Of a stretch of DNA of 64,000 bases, positions 1,947-59,853 are shown piece after piece; positions within the stretch are counted from its first letter, which is position 1; each line of letters begins with the position of its first letter. The position numbers and the translations under genes were made by a program. Source of the DNA: an uncultured Planctomycetia bacterium. Lineage in GTDB: Bacteria > Omnitrophota > Gorgyraeia > Tantalellales > Tantalellaceae. A model generated the notes under the pieces. The model was not told the DNA's origin, searched no databases, and was given only the letters and a program-made list of their open reading frames with translations. The stretch is from positions 121,129 to 185,128 of the forward strand of contig CAZNEE010000002.1 in NCBI GenBank assembly GCA_964572255.1, written 5' to 3'.

Positions 1947-3610
1947 TATTGCTTCTTGAATATCGCTCCGGTTGCGGCAGAAGTTACTTGCTGGGCATAT
2001 CTATAAAGATATCCCTCTTTTATCTTGTAGTCAGGATGCTGCCACTTTTCGAGGCGTTTTTTTATTTCATCTTCGTCAACTAAAAGTTCCAGTTTTTTAT
2101 TAGGTATATCTATCCGGATCTTGTCCCCTTCTTTAACGATAGCTATGGGACCGCCTTCCTGAGCTTCAGGAGAGATGTGTCCGATCGCTGCACCGCGTGT
2201 GCCGCCCGAAAATCTCCCGTCAGTGATAAGAGCAACGTCTTTATCCAGACCTTCACCCACAATTGCTGAAGTAGGGCTTAACATCTCACGCATTCCCGGT
2301 CCGCCTTTAGGCCCTTCATAACGAACGACTACAACATCGCCCTTTTTTATCTTTTTCCCCAGAATAGCTTTCATGGCATCTTCTTCCGAATCGAACACCC
2401 TTGCGGGACCTTCATGAACGAGCATGCTTTCATCGACCGCGGCTTTTTTGACCACGGCGCCGTCCGGACAAAGATTACCGAAAAGTATGCTTAACCCTCC
2501 ATCCGGTGAATACGGAGAATCTATCGGATGAATAACTTCCGGATCCAGGTTCTTTACATTCTTTATGTTGTCTTTTACTTTCTCTCCGGTAACGGTCATA
2601 GCATCAGTATTTATCAGATTTTTCTTGCTTAGTTCCAATATCACGGCTGGAATACCGCCAGCTGCATCAAGATCCTCTATATGATAAGTCCCCGCCGGTG
2701 ATATGCGGCACAGGTTCGGCGTACGTTCACTTACCTTGTTAAAAAGCTCAAGATCGAGTTTTATGCCGGCCTCGTTGGCTATCGCGGGGAGATGGAGAAC
2801 AGTATTTGTGGAACTCCCGAGCGCCATTTCAACAGCTACCGCGTTCTCAAAAGCCTTTTCGGTGGCTATATCCCTGGGTTTTATGTCTTTTTTAACAAGT
2901 TCCACTATTCTCTTGCCCGCTTCCACGGCAAGAAACCGTCTTTTTTCGGAAACCGCCGGGTAAGTCCCGTTGCCGGGCAGGCCCAGGCCCAGGGCTTCGC
3001 TTAGGCAGTTCATGGAATTGGCGGTAAACATTCCCGCGCATGAACCGCACCCGGGGCAAGCTGTATTTTCCAGTTCTTTCAGTTCTTCCTCGGTTATTTT
3101 TCCGGATGAATGCGCACCGACGCCTTCAAAAACAGTAATAAGGTCGATCGCCTTGCCGTCTTTTTTACCCGCGAGCATGGGGCCGCCGCTAAAGAAAATA
3201 GCGGGGATATTGAGCCTCAGCATCGCCATCATCATGCCGGGAACGATCTTGTCGCAGCTGGCCATACATAGAAGGCCGTCAAACGCGTAAGCCATACCCA
3301 TGGATTCAACGGAATCGGCGACTATCTCCCTCGAAGGAAGAGAATATTTCATGCCTTTATGCCCCATGGCTATACCGTCGCATATCCCTATCGTATTGAA
3401 TTCCATGGGAGTGCCGCCCGCCTCCCTGATGCCTTCTTTAACGGCTTCAACCAGGCCTCTGAGATGAATATGTCCGGGGATGACTTCATTAAAAGAATTC
3501 GCGATCCCTACTATGGGACGCGACAGATCCTCATCCGTGTAACCCATCGCCTTAAAAAGTGAGCGATGAGGAGCCCTTTCAATGCCTTTTTTCATTTGGT
3601 CTGAACGCAT
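1946..3610 (-). CDS. ilvD: dihydroxy-acid dehydratase
   Basis: 554 aa; [11 protein letters not shown] and [16 protein letters not shown] motifs typical of IlvD/EDD family. Confidence 0.9.
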
Positions 3611-5315: not shown

Positions 5316-8300
5316 TTAAGCCGCTGCTCTGACTCCTAATTCCCTGTAAAATTCTTTCTTGAGGAGTTCTCTATCAATGGGCTCTGCTTTTGGCATGAAA
5401 GTAAATACCCTCGGGCTATCTTCATCAAACTCCAGCCCTATCTCGGGATAACTCTTCTTCAGTTCACTGATCAAGACTTCGAACGGTAAAACTTTATTAA
5501 AGGCAAGCTCTAAAGCCATGTTAATCATATCAACGATCCTTATGTAATTTTCTTCATTCCCATTCTCCGGCCGCTTATTGATCTGTTCAGGATCGATCCT
5601 CACCAAAAGCGCCCTGTCTCCCGTTTTAGGATCATGTAAAGGCTTGAACGCTTCTTCTTTTACTATATCCTCATGCCCTAAAACGATGATGTTCGAAAAG
5701 TTGACTTTTTTATTATCTGCTTCTTTCAGCAGCTGTCCGGCGAAATCATCCCCCTCTTTCCTGACAATATGGATATTTTTGATCCCGAGGCTTCCGGCGA
5801 TCCTGTATATCTCGCTTAAAAGCGGTTGTATTATATCGGCCTGTTCTTTTGGTATCCAGCTGGTCTCCAGCCCGATCATAATATTTTGTTCGTCATTTTT
5901 GACCCCCCCGCCAAGATCCCCATTTTTAACTTTATCGGCATAAAACCTGAGCATATCCATGAAAAGCATTGCCATCTCCTGAGCCCTGGTAAATTTGCCT
6001 TCTGTCCGCTTCCCTGCGGAAGGTTTATGTCTGATAAAATATAACGCGCTGTTATACACATGCTTGCTGTCCTTATAACTCGTTTCGACATCCATGATAT
6101 CGCCAGTGATCCCGCTCAATATTCTATATTTTCCGGCCGATCTGAGTATCTCGGCCACGGCGTCAATATCGCCCAGCTTTTCATCACGGGTTATGCACGG
6201 ATCATTCCATATCATCGCTATTCCATCATCATGGAGCATGACCGGCAATGCGCGGGCAAAGCGACTTAATGCGTCTCCCCCGATATCGCCGTCCCAATAG
6301 CTTGCAAGTTTTTTGTGCCAGGCGGGCACACTCTCTCCCGGCGAATCGATCAAGTTAGGCATGTTCCAGATGATCCTGTCGAAAACGCCGTCAAAAACAG
6401 GTTCTCCGTTTTCTGAAATTATATTATCATGGGTCACGGTCTCGATATCAAACCCGGCTATCTTAGCGGTCAGGCGAGTGTTTGCCGCTGCAAGCGGATT
6501 TATATCAACGGCATAGATCTTTCTGCCTGTTTTAAGATACGCTATCCAGCTGTCTATGCCCGAACCGGAACCCGCGATCAAGACCCTATGCCCCTTATCC
6601 AATCCTATATCATTCCACATAGCAGGGATTATCTTGGCATCAGAAACCGTCATTTCCGCCGGCGTATATACAGTGGGAAATACCGGGATAATGATCTTCT
6701 TTTTGCCTTCTTCTTCTTTAAAAATTCTTTCAAAATCCTGGTCGGATAATGTTTCCGGGGTAAAGGTCTGTATATCTATTTTTCCTGTCAGGGTATCAAC
6801 CCCGATATAATTATAGATATCTGTTTCCTGGCGGTTGAAATTTGAAATAAGCTGGCCTTGTCTTCTTCTCTCAGCGGCAAAAGAAAGCAGCAGCTTCTTG
6901 TCCGCATTCCTTCTTGTTATGAAATCTTTCCATTTCTGCGCGGCCTCAGGATCGGTCATATCGGGAAAAACAAAATTGTAAGGCGTAAGATCCAGATAAT
7001 AGATTTCATCCTGTGCGGGAGCGCCTTTGACAACAGGAAATATCCCTATTAAAAGACCCTGTTCATTATGTAAAAACTCGAATTCCCTTGTTTTCTCTCC
7101 GGCAAGTTCTCTATAAAGCACATCTAATCCGCGCGGAGTTCCGTACATCATAGATGTTTCGGGGATCCTTATCGTGCGAATGATGGTATTACTCCACCCT
7201 TGTCTTTCGGAAATTATACCGGCCTTATTGATCTCCAATGCCTGCAGGAACTCCCACGAAGCCATGTCTTTATAAAAAGCTGCGTCAGCCTCCTGCGCCT
7301 TGACCAATTTTGTTCCCGTTGCAACTGCTTCTTGTTTCTTGCCTGGAATGAAACGAACTTCAGATCTTATCTTTCCCTCGATATTGTCCAGTTCATCCAA
7401 AACATAATCACCAAAGATTTTTACTGCCTTTCCTTTTATGGGAACATCCGATACAACAAATGTACTGTCATCAAAAACTTTTATGAACTTATGAAAACGT
7501 TCTTTATTGTCAGTATCTTCGATATATACAGGAATTTTTTCCGCAGAATAAGCCTCTCCGACAACGGCTTCGAACGGTTTAAATCCCCTGTTTTTCCTTC
7601 TGAAATCAGGCCCTATATACTCATCTCCTTTCAGTTCAAAACCCAGATCTTCCACAACACTCACCAGGAAAGGATTCTGAACAAAAATGCCAAATTCTAT
7701 GTAGTAAGAACCGTTGTAAATAGCCCCCTGTTTCAGTCCGGACAACAGAACTTCCAGGAATGCCCGGGCGTACCCTCTATTCCTGTAAAGATTATCAACA
7801 AAAATACAATCGATTTCCGTGTCATTAAATCTGATATAACCAACAGGATCCCCATCCCCGCCGTAAAAATCCAGACTGCCATGATTCTCGGAAGACATGG
7901 GGAAATATTCGAAGAACAGTTTTTCATTATTGGGTGTAATAACATGCCCTGAGTAGCCTTCTTCTTCGAAAATGCTATTGCAGACTTCAGTTATTTCAAT
8001 AACCTCAGGATATTCCTCGGCAAAAGTCGCTGCTGTCAACCTTCTCTCTTTTAATGACCTCAAATAAGGCCCGACCATGATAGAACCAGTGTGATCGCCT
8101 TTCATCCAATAAGCGCCATCAATATAAGTAACAGGGGTATTATTCTCTAAAATAGCGACCCAATTATGCGTATAAGGCTTATCAAAGCCCCAATAATATC
8201 CTCCGACAACTTCCACTCGGCTGGGCGAATCCCCTCCCAATGGTAATCCATATTTCCTGGAAATGATCTCCGCCAGAGCTAAGGCGGAAATATAGCATTC

Positions 8301-11300
8301 TTTTACCGGGTATCCTTTTTTCACTTTTTGCCGCATAAGTTCCGTAAAACGATTTTCAATAGCTTTGAGATGCAAATACAAATTATCATCCGATGGCAGC
8401 ACTGAATGCGGATCTTGAACCTTGCCGTCACCGTAACCCGGAGGTCCGGGTTCGGATTTTAATTCGTTCTCTCCATCATACACCCTTATGCCCGAAGCCC
8501 AATCACTCTTATCGTACGGCCAAACTGTTACTTTCTTTCCTCCATGCCTAACTCCGATATAATATGGTTGCCCCATTAACGTTATGCTTCCATCTTTTCC
8601 GATCTTTCTTTCTGCAGGTATTGAGGGTTTTTTACGTACCACCTTTTTTCTCGGCTTTTTGACCATCTCATGCTTTTTACGTTTCTTTGTTCCTTTATTA
8701 TGGGAATTATAGCTCTCGATCAATCTTTCTACGGAATATTCTCCTGCAACTTCTTCCTCACTTTTTTCTTCCCCCTTCATCCTGTACCCAAGATGCGCGA
8801 CTTCATGGTTAAGCCATCTGGCATAAGAAACTAGATCATTTCTTCTGATCATTCCCAGAAATTCAAGAACTTTGCGCGGGATCAGCAGATTGCAGGAACG
8901 CGCAGCGCCATTTTCATCTCTCCAGGACCCGGGGTGAGTGATAAGTCTGAACGAACCTTTTTCCGGAAAAGAGATATTGCTTGTTTCTGCAAATTTATAA
9001 AGAACATCATAGAAATATTTCTCGGGGGGGCTATGTATATGGATCTCTTCTTCTATGCCCCTGCTTCTCATCTCGCTTAAGATATCTTGCCCTAATCCTT
9101 TTTCTGTTGAGATCTTATGATCTCTTTCAAATACATCCCAATAAACCCCCCATGTTTTATTGATAACGGCGTGCTGCTGGGCATTTAACACATACTGAAC
9201 CCATCTGCCGTCTTTTTTTACTAAAGCAATCGCGGGCGGATCATCGGAAGGAATGCCTTTTTTCTTATCCGATAACCTTGGCGATTCAGGCATTTTCCGT
9301 CCCCGGGAATAATTAAAACCTCTTCCATATCTGTCTCCGCTTCTTCTTTCTCCATCAATGTAAAACGTCAATTTCGGGCTGACTTCCTTGACTTTCACTG
9401 AGACAGCTTCACCTTCACTAAATCTTTTGCCTCCGCAAAGACTAAGGGGCATGAAACCTTTAACTTCTCCCTCATAAACAAGTTCATATCCCGCCAATGA
9501 ACCATCGCTCCTGCGGCGAGACTCTCTATTTACGAACACCTTAACTTCCTCTCCCGATCTCTCAGCTGCCTCCAATTCATACAATAGATCTCTTTTTCTT
9601 TCATTCGCCATCATCTGTCTTCGGCGAATAGAGAACCTGGGTTCGGGAATTATCCCCCTCCATTTACAATCGACGAGAACAACGTTCACTTTTCTGCCAA
9701 GCATATCATCAGGATTAGTTCCATAGGGGCATTCTCTCGAGCTAATGCGTCCTTTTATCTCCTTGAATTCAACCACGTAGTAGTCAAATTTGCCTCTATA
9801 ACTGTAATGATCTTCCACGATCTTGACCCTAAAAACTTTTTCAGGATCATCTTCCCCCTGCTTTATCTCTCTGATACCTAAATGATAATTAAAGACGGAT
9901 TTTGCTTTTTCGTCCAACTTGTCCAAAATAGCCTTTGATATTTTTTTATATTCATCTTCTTCTTTGCTGACCAAATAAGAAAACTCTGCGGGTTTTTCTA
10001 TTCTGCGCCTTGCATCAACAAACCTGTTCAAGTCCGCTTCTGCAATACAGTTTTCCGCTTTTCTTTTTGCTTTTGGCAAACCATGTTTTTTTAAATATAA
10101 AAAAGCCTCCAGGCTTGACAGCCTGCCTAAGCCGTCTATTTTCCCTTCAGCAGCCAACTTCATTCTTTCTTCGATCCTTTCATCTAAAAGGACTATTATC
10201 CTAATCTTTTCCCGGAAAAAAGCTTCCCTCTCTCCGAGCTTTAGGGCTTTCCATGCCCTATCGGAAAGTTTGAACTTATCACGTCTCCTGCTGTCGCTTT
10301 TCAGTAATTTACGTTCTTCCAAAAGGTCAATGACGTCTATAAGTTTGATCCGCTCATCATGAATCTTTTTCCTTACATGATCTCTCATTTCCCCTAAGAC
10401 ACGATCGGCTTCTTTCTTTGCATCTATTTCCGGCAATAATTCCGGGCGTTCATCCAAAACTTTATCGAGAAACACCGTAAAATGATCCGCCAGATCATCA
10501 TCACCCATGCTCCTAAGCTCTCCCAGGCGCCTGCGCATTTCATCAACCGCATAAGATGCTCTTTCAGGTTTCTCTTCACGTATAATCTCAAGGATATCAT
10601 TGAGCTCATCTCTCGTTCTTTCTCCCGAAGAATGAGTATCTTCACTTCCTTTATCCTTATCCGCGGGCTGGTCTGTGTGGGGCGTACCCGGGCCGAAACC
10701 GTCGGTCTTATCTTTATTGTACAAAACCTTAATGCTGAAATTTGGACTGCCCCCCTTTAAGGGGCCTGTCCTTCCGCTCAACATTATTTCTTTCACATCG
10801 GCGTTAAACTTTTCAGGAGCATCTCTCGGTATCCGCGGCTTGCCTCTTATTTCTATTAATACGTCTTCAACCGACTGAGCCACAACGCCGATTACCTTAT
10901 TCCCGATCTTAACGACCAGTTTTTCGTCTATTGTAATAACGGTGCCTTCCCTTAACTCTTTGACAAGCTCCAGTTCCTCTGTCCATTCATTACGTTCTAT
11001 CTTATATTTATTCTTTGTTCCTTCAACATGCTTTAAACGGAGATAAGCCAGCGGAAATACTGTTTCTATGTCTCTGATCTCGATCTCGCCCATCACATCA
11101 TAACTCCAGAAGCCTTCACCTGTCTTAGCGTCATTAATATCCTCGAAGCTTTGCCACTCCCGGCTTTTTTCGTAATTAAGAAGATCTCCGGAATAGAAAG
11201 TGACCTTTATTTCGTCAGCGAAATATTTTTTGAACACGTGTAGGTTATATAGCCAGGGTGTATCTATATAAATTTCATTGATCCCGTTTGTGACAGCAAA

Positions 11301-19095: not shown

Positions 19096-20264
19096 CATAT
19101 CCCGGCAATGCTGCCTGAACAAAAACCGCATTTGCCATCTTTAGAAACATGATTTTCCAGGACCTGGTATCCCATTCTTCTTATAACAACTTTTTTACAC
19201 TTCGGACAGATCGTATCTTCATACCCCATCCCGGGAACATTGCCGATATAAACATAATGAAGCCCCTCTTCAAGGGCGATGTCCCTCGCCTTCTTCAGCG
19301 TCTCAACAGGGGTGGGATAAAGAGATCTTAATTTGTATTGCGGCCAGAAGCGCGAAAAATGCAAGGGGACATCAGAGCCGACATTGGATCTTATCCATTT
19401 GACCATCTGCCTGATCTTGCTCATATCATCATTAAGAGTCGGAACTATTAAATTTGTCAGCTCGATCCACATACCGCCTTGTTTCATGGTGAGTATACTG
19501 TCTAAAATATTATTAAGACTCTGGGCGCATACTTCCCGCAAATATTTATCGTCGAAGCCTTTAAAGTCGATATTCGCAGACTCCACATATTTAGCAGCAA
19601 GTTTCGCGGGTTCTTTATTTATTTTTCCGCCTGTTACCATTACATTATATATACCTTTTGTTTTTGCGAGTTTCGCCCCCTCGATCATATACTCATAAAA
19701 GATAACAGGCTCAGTATAAGTATAAGCAATGGACCTGCATCCGTTCATTGCTGCGCTATCGACAAGATTTTTCACGCTTAAACGATTATTGATAGTCTCT
19801 TCAGGCGAGCGCTGCGATATTGTCCAGTTCTGGCAATATTTGCAGCGGGAATTACAGCCGGCAGTAGCTATGGAAAAAGACTTGCTGGCCGGGAGCACAT
19901 GATACATGGGCTTTTTCTCGATAGGATCAATATGCGCTGAGCAAACAAGTTCATATACAAGAGAGTATAACTTTCCGTCGACAGGTTCCCGAACGCGGCA
20001 AAACCCTCTCTGCCCGTTCGAAAGCGTACAATAATTGGGACACAGAACGCATCTTACCGCTTCATCCCCCATCTTTTCATAAAAAAGGGCTTCATGCATT
20101 CCGCGTTTTTCACCGATAGCGGATAAAGCCTGATATTTTGAAAGAGCGCCAAATGCGTAGAGCGATGCCCCTATACATACACCGGCTTTCGCGCATTTAG
20201 CCAAAAACTCGCGTCGGGTAACTTTCTTATGCCAGATGTTCTCAAGATGTTCAAATACTTTCAT
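19056..20264 (-). CDS. amrS: AmmeMemoRadiSam system radical SAM enzyme with twin-arginine (Tat) signal peptide
   Basis: CPNYCTLSNGQRGFCRVR and GCNSRCKYCQNW motifs typical of the AmrS family. N-terminus TRREFLAKCAKAGVCIGASLYAFGALS is a Tat-type signal. Confidence 0.8.
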   Translation of the reverse strand: MKVFEHLENIWHKKVTRREFLAKCAKAGVCIGASLYAFGALSKYQALSAIGEKRGMHEALFYEKMGDEAVRCVLCPNYCTLSNGQRGFCRVREPVDGKLYSLVYELVCSAHIDPIEKKPMYHVLPASKSFSIATAGCNSRCKYCQNWTISQRSPEETINNRLSVKNLVDSAAMNGCRSIAYTYTEPVIFYEYMIEGAKLAKTKGIYNVMVTGGKINKEPAKLAAKYVESANIDFKGFDDKYLREVCAQSLNNILDSILTMKQGGMWIELTNLIVPTLNDDMSKIRQMVKWIRSNVGSDVPLHFSRFWPQYKLRSLYPTPVETLKKARDIALEEGLHYVYIGNVPGMGYEDTICPKCKKVVIRRMGYQVLENHVSKDGKCGFCSGSIAGIWGTPHQGTPRKIE

Positions 20265-25881: not shown

Positions 25882-25904
25882 AGAAAAAAATATATCATGC
25901 TCAT

Positions 25905-26260
25905 CAAAGCAGATCTATAAGCCGGGTTCTGTAGGCGGAATTCACCGCCCGGCGATCATCCATCTGGGGCTTTCATTACTGAAAACCTCGTGCGGCCTAC
26001 CCGGAAGTTGTGACGAAGCTAGCCGCTTCGTTATCAGTCAATCCGCATGATTTTTCGGATTTTCCTGATTCCTCCCCTATTTGGCCTTGCTCCGCGTAGA
26101 GATTGCCGCGTTTCACTTCCGCATGCAAAAGCACGCTTACTCGTCTCTGTGGCTCTGATCCTCACCTTTTGGTGGACGGGCATTACCCGCTACGCTGCTA
26201 TATGGAGCCCGGACTTTCCTCCCCCTGCAAAAAGCAAAGAGCGATCACCCGATCTGCTTC
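25905..26260 (-). ncRNA. rnpB: RNase P RNA, bacterial type A
   Basis: The minus strand carries GGGGAGGAAAGUCCGGGCUCC (P4 5' strand), CGGAGCAAGGCCAAAUAGGGG and ACAGAACCCGGCUUAU (P4 3' strand). The P1 strands GAAGCAGAUC / GAUCUGCUU pair at the two ends. Confidence 0.85.
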
Positions 26261-27465: not shown

Positions 27466-27542
27466 TGGTGGGCGCAGGGGGACTCGAACCTCCGACCTCA
27501 TGCATGTGAGGCATGCGCTCTAACCAGCTGAGCTATGCGCCC
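27466..27542 (-). tRNA. tRNA-Val (anticodon CAC)
   Basis: Cloverleaf GGGCGCA-TAGCTCAGCTGGTTAGAGC-G-CATGC-CUCACAU-GCATG-...-TTCGAGT-...-TGCGCCC-A-CCA; 77 nt with CCA encoded. Confidence 0.8.
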
Positions 27543-27584
27543 AGTTCCAACTAAGGGCAGGAAAGTTGTTTACCGCATTTTTCA

Positions 27585-27661
27585 TGGTGGGGGCACATGG
27601 ACTCGAACCATGAACCTACTGATTATGAGTCAGTTGCTCTAACCACTTGAGCTATGCCCCC
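27585..27661 (-). tRNA. tRNA-Met (anticodon CAT; elongator type, tRNA-Ile2 not excluded)
   Basis: GGGGGCA acceptor, anticodon loop CUCAUAA. The anticodon stem ACTGA/TCAGT lacks the three G-C pairs of initiator tRNA. Confidence 0.75.
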
Positions 27662-27787: not shown

Positions 27788-27946
27788 AGCAGATTTTAAT
27801 CGTAAACTGTTCGCAAGAGCAGGACACAAAGCCAAAGGGGCTAAACAATGCTTTCAGCCAGCCGGCTGCCGATTGACACATCGTTAAAGTGTTGGCATAA
27901 GTATTGATCAGACCCAACCTTTCGATGGTTGGGTTTTTTGTTTTTT
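27788..27946 (+). promoter_or_regulatory. c-di-GMP-I (GEMM) riboswitch-like leader with intrinsic terminator, upstream of the first PEP-CTERM gene
   Basis: AAACUGUUC-GCAA-GAGCAGGACACAAAGCC...GGGGCUAAACAAUGC closely matches the Vibrio Vc2 aptamer (AAACCAUUC-GAAA-GAGUGGGACGCAAAGCC...GGCCUAAACCAUUGC). Followed by hairpin CCCAACC-UUUCGAU-GGUUGGG plus a U-tract. Confidence 0.7.
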
Positions 27947-28056
27947 ATAAGTAAAAAGTTTTTAAAAGGAGGTGATGAAAAATATTTCTTGCAAGTTTTT
28001 TTGCAGTTATATATAGGTAAGTTTTAAAAATCTAAGAAGAAAGTGAGGTGATAACG

Positions 28057-28659
28057 ATGAAGAAAATGTTGATCTTGATCTGTTTTGTATTAGCTATAGC
28101 GTTTATGGTAATACCATCGAAAGTTGAAGCTAGAACCATCGAAGATGATGAAGATATAGGCCCACCTCCTGGAACAGTACTCGAATATTGTGAGTGGTGG
28201 CCAAGTGAAACGGGTGACCCGGATTTTATAGATCTGAATTCTGGTGACAATTATTATGACCCTGAAACTGAAACTATCGTTTCAATGACAATCTCTGTTT
28301 GGGGAAGATCTAGCGATCAGCATGATGGTCAAGACAGCACAATTGAAGTATATATAGGCAGTACTGCTACTCCGGGGAGTCATTTGCAGCACGAGACCAT
28401 AACTCATGGCGATGAACTGGAGACAAAAACTATCACATTAAATGCTGCTGCTCTGGCCGATATCTCTGGAGACGGTAAAATAAACCTTAGATGGCACGGT
28501 CTTTCCGGAGGCGCAGGTGATCCTGACGGAGACACATTTGCTTTGGCTGGCTACCCTTCCTACGAAGCACATACCCCCGAACCGGCAACAATTATATCAC
28601 TACTTCTGGGCGGATTGGGAATGGCAGTAAAGAGGAAAAAGTTGTTCTTTAAGCAATAA
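28057..28659 (+). CDS. secreted PEP-CTERM sorting-signal protein
   Basis: GAGGTG sits 6 nt upstream of ATG at 28057. Signal peptide MKKMLILICFVLAIAFMVIPSKVEA, acidic mature region, and C-terminal TPEPATIISLLLGGLGMAVKRKK (PEP motif, hydrophobic helix, basic tail). Confidence 0.75.
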   Translation: MKKMLILICFVLAIAFMVIPSKVEARTIEDDEDIGPPPGTVLEYCEWWPSETGDPDFIDLNSGDNYYDPETETIVSMTISVWGRSSDQHDGQDSTIEVYIGSTATPGSHLQHETITHGDELETKTITLNAAALADISGDGKINLRWHGLSGGAGDPDGDTFALAGYPSYEAHTPEPATIISLLLGGLGMAVKRKKLFFKQ

Positions 28660-28760: not shown

Positions 28761-28874
28761 TTACTTTTTCTTTCTCTTTTTCTTTGCAGCTTTTTTCTTT
28801 TTCTTTACAACTTTTTTCTTTTTCTTTGCTACTTTTTTCTTTGCAGCTTTTTTCTTTTTCTTCTTTACTACCAT
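28761..28874 (-). CDS. 37-aa polylysine micro-protein (MVVKKKKKKAAKKKVAKKKKKVVKKKKKAAKKKRKKK)
   Basis: Minus-strand ORF with strong RBS GAGGAGGGG 5 nt upstream of ATG. Built from a ~21-nt tandem nucleotide repeat and followed by the terminator at 28708-28741. Too short for the ORF track. Confidence 0.45.
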   Translation of the reverse strand: MVVKKKKKKAAKKKVAKKKKKVVKKKKKAAKKKRKKK

Positions 28875-29272
28875 TATCCCCTCCTCTTTTTGTTTAAAAA
28901 CTTTTTTTTATTTTTCTCTTCGAAAATCTTTTCTTGTAAAAAATATACATTATTATTTTTATTTTGCAAGTCTATGAAAAACTTTTTTTGCTCTGTATTA
29001 AAAAAATTTTTCGCTTTGAGAATATTTTTTCGGGAAAATATCATTCACTTTCGGCGTGAAAGATGAAAAATAATACACACGCTATACCTCTTTAAAATAA
29101 GGGGCTGTAGCGCTATGGATTTTTCTTCTTTTTTATTTTACTTTTCAACCTTGGAGATGTTGGGTGAGTTTGATCAAAAATATTTTATAAAAAATTTTCA
29201 AAATGAAAAAAAATTCAATATTTTTGCTTTTTAAAAAAAATAAATAAAAATATTTTTAGGATTTATTTGCGC

Positions 29273-33631: not shown

Positions 33632-34081
33632 TTATCCCTCCTTGCTTTGATCTAAAACAAATGTTACCGGACCATCATTGATGAGCTTTACATCCATATG
33701 AAGGCCAAAAGCACCTTCCTCCACCGCGATATCTTCCTGCCGTAAAAATTCATTGAATTTCTTCCACAAGTTTTCTGCAACTCCCGGTTCTGCCGCATCG
33801 TCGAAGCCGGGTCTATTCCCTTTCTTAGTGTCCGCAAAAAGGGTAAATTGCGGAACACTCAAAACTTTCCCTTTTACTTGTTTTAAATCAAGGTTCATTC
33901 TACCATTTTCGTCTTCAAAAATCCTCATTTTACTTATCTTCAGCGCCATATTCAACACGGATCCGGGATCATCATCTTTACCGATACCGGCAAGAAGAAG
34001 TGCTCCTTTGCCGATTGACGCTATCTCTTTTCCCTCGACCGAAACCGAGGCTCCTTTGACGCGCTGCATTACAATCTTCAT
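33632..34081 (-). CDS. dtd: D-aminoacyl-tRNA deacylase
   Basis: Start at MKIVMQRV (Dtd typically begins MRAVIQRV); PQFTLFAD corresponds to the SQFTL motif; GPVTFVLD C-terminus. Confidence 0.85.
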   Translation of the reverse strand: MKIVMQRVKGASVSVEGKEIASIGKGALLLAGIGKDDDPGSVLNMALKISKMRIFEDENGRMNLDLKQVKGKVLSVPQFTLFADTKKGNRPGFDDAAEPGVAENLWKKFNEFLRQEDIAVEEGAFGLHMDVKLINDGPVTFVLDQSKEG

Positions 34082-34101
34082 AATTATAATAAAATTATAT
34101 A

Positions 34102-34247
34102 ATGCTTGAACTGTTTCTCGCAGGGACGTCAAATTTTCCCAGCGAGAAAATTTGACTCAAAAATCTCCTCGCTCTCGCTGCAACTTAGGCGCCAGCGAAC
34201 CATGCCCGCTCGTCGATTTGATGCCCTGCTCTAAACAGTTCAAGCAT
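34102..34247. repeat. ~146-nt palindromic repeat element with 14-nt perfect terminal inverted repeats (ATGCTTGAACTGTT / AACAGTTCAAGCAT), copy 1
   Basis: Nearly identical (inverted) to 59238-59399. Fills the dtd / FAH intergenic region and overlaps the FAH stop codon. Confidence 0.65.
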
Positions 34248-34983
34248 TACCTGCTTTTACTATATTCCTGAGCTTGCCGATTCCCTCGATCTCAACGACG
34301 ATCTCGTCTCCGGGCTGCATTGGTCCGATCCCGGACGGCGTACCGGTCGCTATTACATCTCCGGGCAGCAATGTCATGATGCCCGATATGAAACTTACTA
34401 GCTTCTCAACACCAAAAATAAAATTCGACGTGCGTGAATCCTGCTTTTTCTCGCCGTTGAGATACGCTCTTATATAAAGATCATCAGGGTCAACATCCGT
34501 TTCCACCCACGGGCCTATCGGCGCGAAAGTGTCAAAAGATTTCGCCCTGGTCCATTGACCGTCCCTTTTCTGCAGGTCTCTTGCAGTGACATCATTAAAA
34601 CATGTATAACCCAGGATGTGAGATCCTGCTTCATCGGGGGTTATTCCCCTGATCCTATCCTTTATAACTATCCCCAATTCCGCCTCGTAATCTACCCTTG
34701 CAGATGAAATGGGGTACATTATCTCTTCATCCGGCCCTATAACCGATGTCGAAGGTTTAATGAAGATGATGGGCTCATCAGGTATATCCATGCCCAATTC
34801 ATCGGCATGATCTCTATAATTCAGACCGACTGACACGACCTTCGAAGGTACGGCGGGCGTTAATAATTTAACTTCTCTAATATCGAAATTTTTTTGATCA
34901 TCCGGTAACCCGGTCCTTATTTCACTCCCCCCTAAAACCCCGTTATAAATATTTTCTTTATGTTCAAACCGTACTAACTTCAT
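34240..34983 (-). CDS. fumarylacetoacetate hydrolase (FAH) family protein
   Basis: LNYRDHADELGMDIPDEPIIFIKP and DYEAELGIVI motifs. Confidence 0.8.
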   Translation of the reverse strand: MKLVRFEHKENIYNGVLGGSEIRTGLPDDQKNFDIREVKLLTPAVPSKVVSVGLNYRDHADELGMDIPDEPIIFIKPSTSVIGPDEEIMYPISSARVDYEAELGIVIKDRIRGITPDEAGSHILGYTCFNDVTARDLQKRDGQWTRAKSFDTFAPIGPWVETDVDPDDLYIRAYLNGEKKQDSRTSNFIFGVEKLVSFISGIMTLLPGDVIATGTPSGIGPMQPGDEIVVEIEGIGKLRNIVKAGNA

Positions 34984-35652: not shown

Positions 35653-37308
35653 TTATTCAAGAAAATTCATCTCCAAGAAATTCTTGAGCTGCCTTGCCCT
35701 TATAGGATGCCTTAATTTCTTCAGAGCCTTGGCCTCTATCTGGCGCACTCTTTCTCTCGTAACATTAAATATCTTGCCCACCTCTTCGAGGGTCCTGGGG
35801 TAGCCGTCCCCTATACCGAACCTGAGTATGAGAACTCTTCTTTCGCGTTCGGTAAGAGTCGAAAGCACGCCTTCCATCTGTTCTTTAAGCATCGCATACG
35901 CCGTTGCGTTCGCGGGTGAGACAGCTGATTTATCTTCGATGAAATCCCCGAAACTCGTATCGCCTTCATCTCCTATCGGTGTTTCAAGAGAAATAGGATG
36001 CTGGGCTATCTTTATGATCTCTTTTACTTTAACGACAGGGATCTTCATCTCTTTAGCGATCTCTTCCGGGGTGGGTTCTCTCCCCCGTTCCTGTACAAGC
36101 TTGCGTGAACCTCTTACAAGTTTATTGATCGTTTCGGTCATGTGTACCGGGATCCGTATCGTTCTCGACTGGTCAGCTATGGATCGTGTTATGGCCTGTC
36201 TGATCCACCATGTCGCGTATGTACTGAATTTGTATCCTCTTTCATATTCAAACTTGTCCACCGCCTTCATGAGCCCCATGTTCCCTTCCTGAATAAGATC
36301 AAGAAAAGACAACCCCCTGTTTGTATATTTTTTGGCAATACTTACGACAAGCCTGAGATTGGCGGCAACAAGTTCTTTTTTGGCTTTTGTATAATCTCTT
36401 TCAATAAGTTTAACAGCTTCCAGGTCTTCCAATATCCTGCCCGGCGACTGGCCTATTTTTCTCGCGAGTTTGCGCAGAAGATTCTGGTTCTCTTTGAGCT
36501 CTTTCTTAGCCCTTCCCTTCTGAAGCCTTATAATGCGGTTATTTGCCCTTCTTACTTCCTCCATCTCTTCCATTATCTCATCAGCCACTTTCTCAACAAG
36601 GACTATAGCGACTTTTAGTTTGCCCATAAGCGGCTTGACCGTACTTTCTTTTTTTGAAAGTTTGACCCTTTTTATGAGCGCTTCTTTTCGCTCTTTCAAT
36701 CTTTCCACATTCGCGCTCGGATCGACATCAAGAACTTCATCCAGGTTGTAATCATTATCTATTGCATCTTCTATAGCTTCAAGGATTTTCTCGCGGGCAA
36801 GTTTTATGCCGAAAACTATCTCTTTAAAGTCCTTTTCCTTATCCTTGATCCTCTTTGCAAGTTCCAGTTCTTCATTCCTGCTTAAAAGCGGGATCTGCCC
36901 CATCTGTTTTAAGTACATTTTCACGGGGTCATCTATCTGCACGAAACTGCGGGTCTTTACCTTTTTTCCGCCCCTTTTTACCACAAGAGGTATTTTCTCG
37001 AGTTCCTCTTCGGATTCAACGACCTTTATATCCGCGGAATGCAGCATGGTTATGACTTCATCTATTTCATCCGCGGAAGCCACTTCTTCAGGAAGAACAT
37101 CATTAACATCATCATAGCTCAAATAACCTTTGTCCTTGCCGGCTTTTATCAGCTTCCGGACAATGGCCGATCTGCTTTTTTCCCCTTTCCGGATATCTTC
37201 AACAGGAATGATCGCTTCGGGTTCTTTTTTCTTCCTGGGAGCTCTCTTGGCGGTTTTCTTTTTAACTTTCTTTATTTTCTTCGGCTTTTTTGTTTTCTTC
37301 TTCGCCAT
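35653..37308 (-). CDS. rpoD: RNA polymerase sigma factor RpoD (sigma-70)
   Basis: [37 protein letters not shown] and a region 4 HTH. Lysine-rich N-terminus. Confidence 0.9.
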
Positions 37309-46027: not shown

Positions 46028-46103
46028 TGGTGGAGCTGAGGGGGATCGAACCCCTGACCTTCTGATTGCGAACCAGACGCTCTTCCAGCTGAGCTACAGC
46101 CCC
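46028..46103 (-). tRNA. tRNA-Ala (anticodon CGC)
   Basis: GGGGCUG acceptor with the G3:U70 identity pair; anticodon loop UUCGCAA; CCA encoded. Confidence 0.85.
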
Positions 46104-52268: not shown

Positions 52269-52862
52269 TTAACTTGTAAACTTTTTTACTGCCGTTCCTA
52301 ATAAAGCAAGGCCTAACATCACCATGCTTGCGGGTTCCGGAGATCCATAAATACCTCGTGCGGCACCTCCCTCGTCACTAATTGCTGCCGCTCCGACCCC
52401 GAAATAATAGGGCGAACTGCCCGCTTCCGGTACGACAAATGTATCGAACCCTTCTTGTTTTCCGACCAAGCTCACAACATCAGAATCAACCAATGTTAAT
52501 GTGCTATCCATCAATACAAAAACAACTGCATCGCCGAACTGTTCGTTATTCGAGTACCATTTGTAATTGATTACATCCCCTACTGAAAAAGAGGTAGGTG
52601 CAACATTGAACACCCCTTCATTAACAGTGGTAATTTTAAATATCGCCATATGTTCCGTATGATCAGCTTCATCTGAATCTTCAGGTGACTTTTCAACAGA
52701 TACACTTGGTCCGTTAGGTGCCCAATTTGTCATGTCGCGCATTTCTAAAAGAATATTACTCAATCCGAGCTCCCACATATTATATGTCGCAGCTTCAGCA
52801 CAAATTGTTAACGCAAATAATAGTGCAATAAACAATATAAAAGCTAAACAACATTTCTTCAT
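52269..52862 (-). CDS. secreted PEP-CTERM sorting-signal protein, paralog 2
   Basis: Same RBS/start context as the 28057 gene (GAGGTG 6 nt upstream of ATG). Signal peptide MKKCCLAFILFIALLFALTICAEA. C-terminal SPEPASMVMLGLALLGTAVKK. Confidence 0.75.
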   Translation of the reverse strand: MKKCCLAFILFIALLFALTICAEAATYNMWELGLSNILLEMRDMTNWAPNGPSVSVEKSPEDSDEADHTEHMAIFKITTVNEGVFNVAPTSFSVGDVINYKWYSNNEQFGDAVVFVLMDSTLTLVDSDVVSLVGKQEGFDTFVVPEAGSSPYYFGVGAAAISDEGGAARGIYGSPEPASMVMLGLALLGTAVKKFTS

Positions 52863-52892
52863 CATTCTCACCTCACTTTCTTTTTAGATTTT

Positions 52893-53046
52893 AAAAAACA
52901 AAAACCCAACCATCGAAAGGTTGGGTTACTGATTTTCTCCAACACTTTAACGATGTGTTAATCGGCAGCCGGCTGGCTAATTTCTTTCCTAGCCCCTTTG
53001 GCTTTGTTGCCCCGTTCTTCCGAACGGTTTACGATTAAAATCTGTC
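52893..53046 (-). promoter_or_regulatory. c-di-GMP-I (GEMM) riboswitch-like leader with intrinsic terminator, copy 2
   Basis: Minus strand: AAACCGUUC-GGAA-GAACGGGGCAACAAAGCC...GGGGCUA..., then ACCCAACCUUUCGAUGGUUGGGUUUUUGUUUUUU. The P2 stem shows compensatory changes relative to copy 1. Confidence 0.7.
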
Positions 53047-55935: not shown

Positions 55936-56025
55936 AAGCTATGATTTTAGCACAATTGTATATACTCCACAAGCGCGTAAAAATACACGCAATTTTATAG
56001 AGAATTACAATATTTTTGCTGTTAA

Positions 56026-56103
56026 GTGTGCGGCATGTTTCCGTACAGGGAGGATCCACACTGGGCGGAGGGGCCCTGGTAGGAAATATGCCGCACACTT
56101 TAA
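56026..56103. repeat. 19-bp inverted repeat (AAGTGTGCGGCATGTTTCC ... GGAAATATGCCGCACACTT) with a 40-nt GC-rich loop
   Basis: Read from the sequence; lies in the divergent uvrA / XRE-cupin promoter region. Confidence 0.5.
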
Positions 56104-59068: not shown

Positions 59069-59237
59069 TGTGCTAACAACCATAACTCCCCCTGAACTTA
59101 GTAAATATTACTATGCTTTAATACAAATTGGATTTTATTGCGCCAAATTGCGCTCTTTTGGCGTTATTTGTTACTTATTAGATAGTATAATGAGAGAAAT
59201 AGTCCAAGTCAAGTTTTGGCATTATTTATCAGATCTC

Positions 59238-59399
59238 TATATATGCGGTTTGAACTGTTTGGAGCAGGGCATCAAATCTGCGAGCGGGCAAGGTTCGCCA
59301 GCTGTTAAATCGCAGCGAGAGCGAGAAGATTTCTGAGTCAAAATTTCTCGCTGGGAAATTTTGACGTCCCTGCGAAAGACAGTTTAAACCGCATATATA
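59238..59399. repeat. ~160-nt palindromic repeat element, copy 2 (inverted relative to copy 1)
   Basis: Terminal repeats TATATATGCGGTTTGAACTGTT / AACAGTTTAAACCGCATATATA. The interior is ~85-90% identical to the reverse complement of 34102-34247. Ends 2 nt from the pgpA stop codon. Confidence 0.65.
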
Positions 59400-59400
59400 A

Positions 59401-59853
59401 TTAGTGAAAAAGGAATGCTAAGACTTGAAGGATGATATTTGTGTAAATGGCGCCTACGAGGTCATCCAGCATTATGCCCCATCCGCCCCGGACACCCTCA
59501 AGTTTAGCCATCGGAGGGATCTTTATGATATCTATGATCCTGTAAATTATAAAACCCGCAACGATATATAAAAGTTTATAAGGCACGAATAAAAAAGCGA
59601 TCAATATGCAGGCAAATTCGTCAATGACGACTTTTGACGGATCTTTCTCCCCTGTCTCGTCTTCAATAACTCCGCTCGATATAACGCCAAGGATGAAAAG
59701 AATAACAAAAGAGACGAACTGTACCAGCGGATTATTGTGAAGAATCAAATACAGCCCCAGCCCCGCTAAACTGCCTACAGTCCCCGATGCTATCGGCGAA
59801 TAACCAAGTCCGCATACTGTCGCTATAACTTCGTGCACTTTGTTTGACCTCAT
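59401..59853 (-). CDS. pgpA: phosphatidylglycerophosphatase A
   Basis: VIATVCGLGYSPIASGTVGSLAG signature; 150 aa membrane protein. Confidence 0.75.
   Translation of the reverse strand: MRSNKVHEVIATVCGLGYSPIASGTVGSLAGLGLYLILHNNPLVQFVSFVILFILGVISSGVIEDETGEKDPSKVVIDEFACILIAFLFVPYKLLYIVAGFIIYRIIDIIKIPPMAKLEGVRGGWGIMLDDLVGAIYTNIILQVLAFLFH

Follow-up and report, generated by a model that had tools for sequence, protein, structure and literature searches.

The palindromic segment that lies between the FAH and dtd genes of this uncultured Omnitrophota genome, together with a diverged second copy found 25 kb away at an unrelated locus, is probably a non-autonomous insertion element of the MITE/ERIC/Correia kind. 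It would belong to a family not seen elsewhere in sequence and would be co-transcribed with its host genes as one long hairpin. The element measures 146-162 nt. Judging from alignments with relatives, it has evidently inserted at least twice: once between FAH and dtd, and once directly behind pgpA, ahead of the HTH_17/response-regulator operon and its promoter. The former insertion evidently replaced the last FAH codons and provided the gene with a new stop codon (…KAG-NA*).

Structure of the two copies

Copy 1 occupies positions 34100-34249 of the window, i.e. of the 64,000-nucleotide stretch of DNA analyzed here (the element and its parts are given without a strand). It is bounded by a perfect 17-nt inverted repeat, TAATGCTTGAACTGTTT on the left (34100-34116) and AAACAGTTCAAGCATTA on the right (34233-34249). 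An earlier note, made from the sequence alone, had described perfect terminal repeats of 14 nt. These are indeed present, as ATGCTTGAACTGTT at 34102-34115 on the plus strand and its reverse complement at 34234-34247, and a k-mer check brings the full perfect length to 17 nt. The ATGC...GCAT core defined by the shorter repeats (34102-34247) has TA on either flank. Perfect inverted repeats of at least 14 nt within 200 nt are rare by chance: 29 of 30 block shuffles of the window contain none and the remaining one a single seed, compared to 21 seeds in the real window.

Inward of the terminal repeat, copy 1 continues with a 3x3 internal loop and then a GCAGGG/CCCTGC stem (34120-34125 / 34224-34229). 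This stem belongs to the imperfect inverted halves that the note had also recognized, which are found as the inner arms GCAGGGACGTCAAAT (34120-34134) and ATTTGATGCCCTGC (34216-34229), paired with each other. It can be prolonged by TCAAAT/ATTTGA, but the prolongation competes with a local nested hairpin of 11 bp, GTCAAATTTTC-ccagcga-GAAAATTTGAC, located at 34128-34156 and closed by the 7-nt ccagcga loop, again as previously described.

The second copy, which the note had mentioned, is at 59238-59399. It is inverted with respect to the first, the plus strand of copy 1 corresponding to the minus strand of copy 2, and the two are 85% identical (complementary, as read on the same strand) over 148 nt, or 88% identical when the outer stem is left out. 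No k-mer of 20 nt or more is common to both copies or repeated elsewhere in the window. The terminal arms of copy 2, TATATATGCGGTTTGAACTGTTT (59238-59260) and AGACAGTTTAAACCGCATATATA (59377-59399), form an inverted repeat of about 22 nt in which the right arm shows two G.T positions relative to the left. The terminal stem is thus longer than that of copy 1, the difference being a symmetric 3-4 bp indel that matches in both arms. The nested hairpin is found in copy 2 as GTCAAAATTTC / GAAATTTTGAC (59337-59365) and differs from that of copy 1 by one compensated T:A to A:T swap.

RNA folding, which the note had proposed as a check, showed that both copies fold far beyond dinucleotide shuffles. The z-scores are -6.5 and -8.0 for the two strands of copy 1 and -10.0 for copy 2, and in each case none of 200 shuffles folded equally well. 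Minimum free energies of the element transcripts range from -62 to -70 kcal/mol, with z-scores between -6.5 and -10 taking both strands together. The G+C content is 49% for copy 1 and 46% for copy 2, compared to 43% for the window, so that the A+T richness ascribed to MITEs is not a property of the element, although its immediate flanks are AT-rich.

Other repeats and structured RNAs were noticed in the window. A different, G+C-rich palindrome at 18999-19095 has 29-nt arms that are 97% complementary and a 39-nt AT-rich loop (GGGGACGCCCCATCAGGGGACACCC...). It bridges two co-directional minus-strand genes, one arm lying in the 3' end of a radical-SAM ORF (19056-20264) and the other ending 10 nt before the next ORF, and may represent either another type of inserted palindrome or a terminator. 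The inverted repeat at 56024-56100, with 27-nt arms that are 85% complementary and a 23-nt loop, is located in the 270-nt divergent spacer between uvrA and an HTH_3/cupin regulator gene and could be an operator or a structured leader. Two c-di-GMP-I riboswitch aptamers, at 27791-27873 (plus strand, 58.7 bits) and 52961-53043 (minus strand, 48.3 bits), each precede an ORF of about 200 codons with no Pfam match (28048-28659, plus; 52269-52871, minus). The leaders, the ribosome-binding regions and the following hairpin are also similar between these two loci, where they form inverted-repeat pairs; the loci look like paralogous c-di-GMP-controlled genes to which no function is assigned. T/C-rich direct repeats (TTTTTCTTTGCAGCTTTTTTC...) occur at 28770-28922 and 37253-37299. 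Their minus strand would encode lysine-rich low-complexity stretches, and the second sits in the K-rich N-terminus of RpoD. The window also carries a bacterial class A RNase P RNA (25902-26260, minus strand, 216.6 bits), tRNA-Val and tRNA-Met (27466-27661), tRNA-Ala (46028-46103) and a giant ORF of about 3760 codons with pentapeptide-repeat Pfam matches (5316-16619, minus strand).

Host genes and empty sites

The FAH ORF (34240-34983, minus strand) ends ...KAGNA*. Its 3' end, AAT GCT TGA, falls inside the right arm of copy 1, which therefore holds the last two sense codons and supplies the TGA stop codon (34240-34242, minus strand), as had been proposed. The suggestion that the element fills the whole dtd/FAH spacer proved inexact: 18-20 AT-rich bases (34082-34099, or up to 34101) remain between copy 1 and the dtd start codon, an ATG at 34081 on the minus strand. 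Public assemblies are inconsistent about this start (34069-34081), some giving a Dtd protein of 149 residues from the ATG at 34081 (MKIVMQRV) and others one of 145 residues from the next ATG (MQRV).

Copy 2 begins one base past the pgpA stop codon (TAA, 59401-59403, minus strand). Beyond it, a spacer of about 155 nt carries a promoter-like TTGACT-17-TATACT sequence on the minus strand for the HTH_17, response-regulator and HD-GYP genes. The two copies thus have opposed orientations, even though the genes that flank them run co-directionally. The gene content of the window is of the housekeeping type (dnaG, rpoD, RidA, FAH, dtd, UDP-glucose dehydrogenase, PFK, FtsK, RodZ, RimO, PgsA, PgpA, UvrA, FeoB and others), and neither transposase, integrase nor reverse transcriptase genes were found in the window and 10 kb on each side of it (84 kb).

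For FAH and PgpA alike, the nearest named homologues come from MAGs of Candidatus Omnitrophota. Identities drop from 100% to about 72% for FAH and from 99% to 67% for PgpA, with nothing in between, which indicates that close relatives are missing from the databases. The same loci recovered from other metagenomes are 99.2-100% identical to the window, and the element is unchanged in all of them.

More distant relatives nevertheless make it possible to compare filled and empty sites. The gene order dnaG-rpoD-NIL-FAH-dtd-cupin is kept in the relative L132, whose FAH is 72% identical, and in L133, L134 and L135 (69%). In L132 and L133, the two genes are not separated by a spacer but share an ATGA overlap, the junctions reading ...AAAGGGATGAAGGTC and ...GGGGACATGAGAGTA. 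Between the homologous GCAGG and ATGAAG sequences, the window is 167 bases longer than these relatives, a surplus that includes the AT-rich bases left beside copy 1. The Shine-Dalgarno-like AAGGG/AGGGG that precedes the dtd start in the relatives has been removed by the insertion. At the second site, the order pgsA-pgpA-HTH_17-RR is kept in L369 (PgpA 67% identical), in which 175 nt separate pgpA from HTH_17, compared to 317 nt in the window. The two spacers align well over the HTH_17 promoter and 5' leader, and the element, of about 160 nt, appears as one large gap; L369 has GGTATATACTC at the spot where the window reads TTATATA-[element]-TATAGAG. The spacer of L370, 277 nt long, also lacks the element. 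Thus, both copies are insertions relative to the nearest available Omnitrophota relatives, as judged from these alignments. At 65-72% amino-acid identity, these relatives are too distant for the exact ancestral junction to be recovered.

Two further observations were made at the pgpA locus. The pgpA-HTH_17 spacer of L368 extends over 700 nt and contains, at 3090-3290, a tandem array in which a unit of about 40 nt, ATGTCATCCCGGAATTTGACAAAGGACCCAAGCC, unrelated to the element, is repeated four to five times. In addition, the promoter-like site and the 5' leader of about 110 nt of the HTH_17 operon are well conserved between the window (59084-59215, minus strand) and L369 (1150-1283), with CAAATAAC.CCA...TCCAAT..GTATTAAAG in common, at a distance where PgpA is only 67% identical. 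This conservation is beyond what is expected of a spacer, and the segment may be a cis-regulatory leader.

The ends of the element are suggestive of a TA target. Copy 1 reads TA-ATGC...GCAT-TA, a possible duplication that, at only 2 nt in AT-rich DNA, carries little weight. Copy 2 lies within TATATA and is compatible with any duplication of 2-6 nt; because TATATA is its own reverse complement, the longer-looking inverted repeat of copy 2 and a target duplication are inseparable. When copy 1 and one TA are removed from the sequence, the FAH frame reads GCA GGT ATA TAA (KAGI*) and stops 13 nt before the dtd ATG. This is a plausible older end of FAH, which is consistent with insertion at TA and is not a proof of it. 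A clean insertion at TA into overlapping genes would not account for the 18-20 AT-rich bases beside copy 1.

Nature of the element and of its predicted transcript

Prokaryotic MITEs are non-coding elements of less than 500 bp, usually less than 200 bp, with terminal inverted repeats of about 4-30 bp (PMC10969869, PMC2229807). TA at the termini, duplication of the target and transcripts that fold as one long 5'-3' stem-loop are also characteristic (PMC2229807, PMC10969869). The element described here has the corresponding size (146-162 nt), no ORF conserved as protein, and terminal repeats of 17 perfect nucleotides in copy 1 and about 22 nt in copy 2. Its sites are empty in relatives (FAH/dtd in L132 and L133, pgpA-HTH in L369 and L370), and a stable long stem-loop transcript is predicted from both strands. 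The resemblance to MITE or Correia-type elements that the note had pointed out is therefore the best-supported reading, resting on diverged copies at unrelated loci, terminal repeats, TA flanks, the non-coding nature of the element and the empty sites. The evidence stops short of more than two copies, of a clear target-site duplication and of a partner transposase. Several points speak against it: the finding of two copies only in 84 kb, no IS with matching ends in the same 84 kb, a TA duplication that is short and, for copy 2, ambiguous, a G+C content above that of the window, the AT-rich bases left beside copy 1, and the pairing-preserving stem changes described below.

Further copies were looked for at several levels. 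Neither blastn (word size 7) nor a covariance model found a third copy in the 84 kb of this genome or in about 25 kb of the relatives' loci. A scan of genome contigs with GGGACGTCAAANTTTCCCAG, an overly strict pattern, gave one match, in Lacrimispora, which is attributed to chance because its surroundings show no similarity. The 17-mer GATTTGATGCCCTGCTC, too short for a collection the size of the metagenome contigs, matched at least 116 stretches there, and blastn revealed no real copy among the matches listed. Four pattern scans of viral contigs returned chance matches only, blastn with the element found no match in plasmid and phage collections, and a protein search with the concatenated six-frame translation of both copies gave nothing at E<=0.1. 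Several assemblies end inside the element: three Logan assemblies at window base 34137 and others at 59346 and 59273. A further copy or variant of the element is a possible cause, and hairpin-related read errors are an equally good one. Since the Logan break points at 34137 and 59346 just precede the second arm of the nested hairpin, these breaks were not counted as evidence of more copies.

The MITE-type element could be mobilized and expressed as follows. Insertion would take place at a TA within an AT-rich stretch, through a DDE transposase acting in trans; IS630/Tc1-type enzymes are the usual TA-duplicating ones. Because nearly all genes of the window are on the minus strand, and neither a terminator nor a conserved promoter accompanies the element, its transcript probably forms part of the host mRNAs. 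The terminal helix of 17-21 bp, continued by a helix of 6-7 bp, would then be a plausible RNase III substrate or stability determinant, and ribosomes that terminate at the stop codon of FAH or pgpA would need to unwind it. By analogy with Correia and ERIC elements, the helix could be cut by RNase III or alter mRNA stability. Any such effect on the mRNA is a by-product and not a demonstrated function.

The main alternative is that the element is a structured cis-acting RNA module, possibly a domesticated MITE, that selection maintains as a processing or stability signal or as an insulator in the FAH-dtd and pgpA mRNAs. For instance, it could serve as an RNase III site by which FAH and dtd, once coupled in translation, are now separated, or it could stabilize the upstream message at its 3' side. 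We consider this unlikely, although less so than the other alternatives. Several data point in its direction. RNAalifold, applied in the copy1-minus/copy2-plus orientation, gave -62.5 kcal/mol and 47 consensus pairs, all of which are kept in both copies, with the reservation that broken pairs go uncounted because the structure was predicted from the same two sequences. Three of these pairs are changed on both sides and five on one side, each to G-U. The opposite orientation gave -45 kcal/mol and 39 pairs. Differences between the copies are rarer in predicted paired columns (10/94) than in unpaired ones (14/52; Fisher p = 0.018). The T:A to A:T swap in the nested hairpin, the symmetric indel in the outer stem and the fold z-scores of both copies go in the same direction, as do the location of each copy, which starts 0-8 nt from a stop codon, and the fact that strain variants up to 0.8% diverged all keep copy 1 unchanged. 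The changes in the stems, compensated or preserving a wobble, fit selection on pairing at least as well as the neutral decay of a dead transposon.

On the other hand, only two sequences were compared, and the strand that folds better (copy1-minus/copy2-plus) is the sense strand at one locus but the antisense strand at the second. Quasi-palindromes can gain matched changes through hairpin-templated repair, a process from which the compensated changes could also have arisen. Given the two sequences, the self-derived structure, the sense/antisense split and possible hairpin-templated repair, the signal of structure conservation is suggestive but weak. Furthermore, the element is absent from both sites in relatives and belongs to no Rfam family, so that the conserved 3'-UTR RNA structure envisaged in the note finds no support as an ancient conserved RNA. 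The structure-preserving substitutions between the copies leave some room for a structural role of the transcript. A stronger form of the same idea is that the element, more than a dead transposon, is an RNA hairpin module under structural constraint that works in either orientation. It would have inserted at the 3' ends of genes and been retained by selection in Omnitrophota; at FAH-dtd it would have replaced ATGA coupling by a processed or insulated junction, and its stems would be held by compensatory and wobble-only substitutions. This version is somewhat less likely still.

It is very doubtful that the copies are paralogous genes for independent small RNAs, with a separate promoter and terminator for each. 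The element has the size and stability typically seen in sRNAs, and the plus strand carries a sigma-70-like TTGACG-17-CATAAT sequence (10/12 matches) at 34056-34084, some 10 nt ahead of copy 1. However, copy 2 has no corresponding promoter in front of it in the same relative orientation, what lies upstream of the copies is unrelated coding sequence, and promoter-like sites occur in numbers compatible with shuffled DNA (4 found vs 2.6 +/- 1.6). Relatives lack the element, no Rfam family matches it, and a scan reported no terminator-like site at either copy. That the element is itself an intrinsic (Rho-independent) terminator, in which a T-run directly follows a G+C-rich stem, was rejected as well: the base of the stem is A/U-rich, the tract that follows copy 1 on the sense strand is A/U-mixed, and no U-tract follows copy 2.

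Membership of a known RNA family, including 6S RNA and IS605-orfB/omega-type RNAs, could be dismissed, since a search of the entire window at the Rfam gathering threshold gave no match on the element. A search of both copies at E<=10 returned nothing credible, the best sub-threshold scores being noise (IS605-orfB-II, 16.3 bits vs 88 required; Vg1_ribozyme, 19.4 vs 90). A protein-coding reading was rejected too: the only frame open through both copies differs at 11 of 42 amino acids, and the gene callers called no gene inside the full copies.

The idea that the palindromes are recombination sites marking the ends of gene cassettes, such as integron attC sites or other site-specific recombination hairpins, has next to no chance of being correct: imperfect palindromes of 146-162 nt directly after stop codons would suit it, but the flanking genes are housekeeping genes with synteny conserved across the phylum, recombinase genes, integrases included, are missing from the 84 kb, the two copies occur singly, with opposite orientations and 25 kb between them, and the terminal heptamers CTTGAAC/GTTCAAG do not fit the attC core consensus RYYYAAC/GTTRRRY.

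Relation to known palindromic repeats

The MITE-type element brings a MITE/ERIC-like repeat family to Omnitrophota, whose members are known almost exclusively from metagenomes and do not figure among the MITE hosts listed in one review (PMC10969869). It is of an ordinary kind and its biological weight is modest. It provides a clean example of an insertion that splits an overlapping, translationally coupled gene pair and donates the stop codon of the upstream gene. For annotation purposes, it is worth masking or recognizing, as public assemblies disagree on both the FAH C-terminus and the dtd start, and it may contribute to contig breaks in this population.

Several families described in other bacteria share part of these properties. 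RUP of S. pneumoniae (107 bp) is a non-coding element with terminal inverted repeats that is found at TA and mobilized by IS630-Spn1, and it serves as a model for mobilization in trans by a TA-duplicating transposase of the IS630 type (PMC2229807). The partner of the present element is hypothetical by comparison, no IS with matching ends having been found in the 84 kb. QMITE2 of Coxiella burnetii (about 190 bp) prefers the 3' untranslated regions of ORFs and gives a stable stem-loop transcript (PMC10969869). It is unrelated in sequence and host, and 78 copies of it are known versus two here.

The Correia/NEMIS elements of Neisseria (about 107 and 155 bp) are of similar size, with terminal inverted repeats of 24-26 bp compared to 17-22 bp here (PMC2229807, PMC10969869). 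They have TA termini with a TA duplication, filled and empty sites between relatives, and co-transcription with neighboring genes (PMC2229807, PMC10969869); in the present case, the TA duplication is ambiguous and co-transcription probable. The hairpin formed by the Correia terminal repeats is a substrate of RNase III in Neisseria (PMC2229807, PMC10969869), and cleavage of the present element would be its counterpart. The sequences are unrelated, and the IHF site and outward promoter of Correia elements have not been demonstrated here.

ERIC differs from the present element in sequence and in its hosts, which belong to other phyla than Omnitrophota. It also differs in copy number (tens to hundreds of copies vs two known here) and in the length of the perfect terminal repeat, listed as 7 bp vs 17-22 bp here. 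In Yersinia, ERIC sequences exert orientation-dependent effects on the stability of the upstream mRNA (PMC2229807, PMC10969869). They occur in either orientation in transcribed intergenic regions near the 3' ends of genes, have TA termini and are without a known transposase of their own (PMC2229807); the element described here is similar in these respects, its transcription being probable and its TA termini tentative. The likeness extends to overall architecture: ERIC, also called IRU (127 bp), and YPAL/RU-2 are likewise imperfect palindromes of about 130-170 bp, whose transcripts form one long stem-loop joining the 5' end to the 3' end (PMC2229807).
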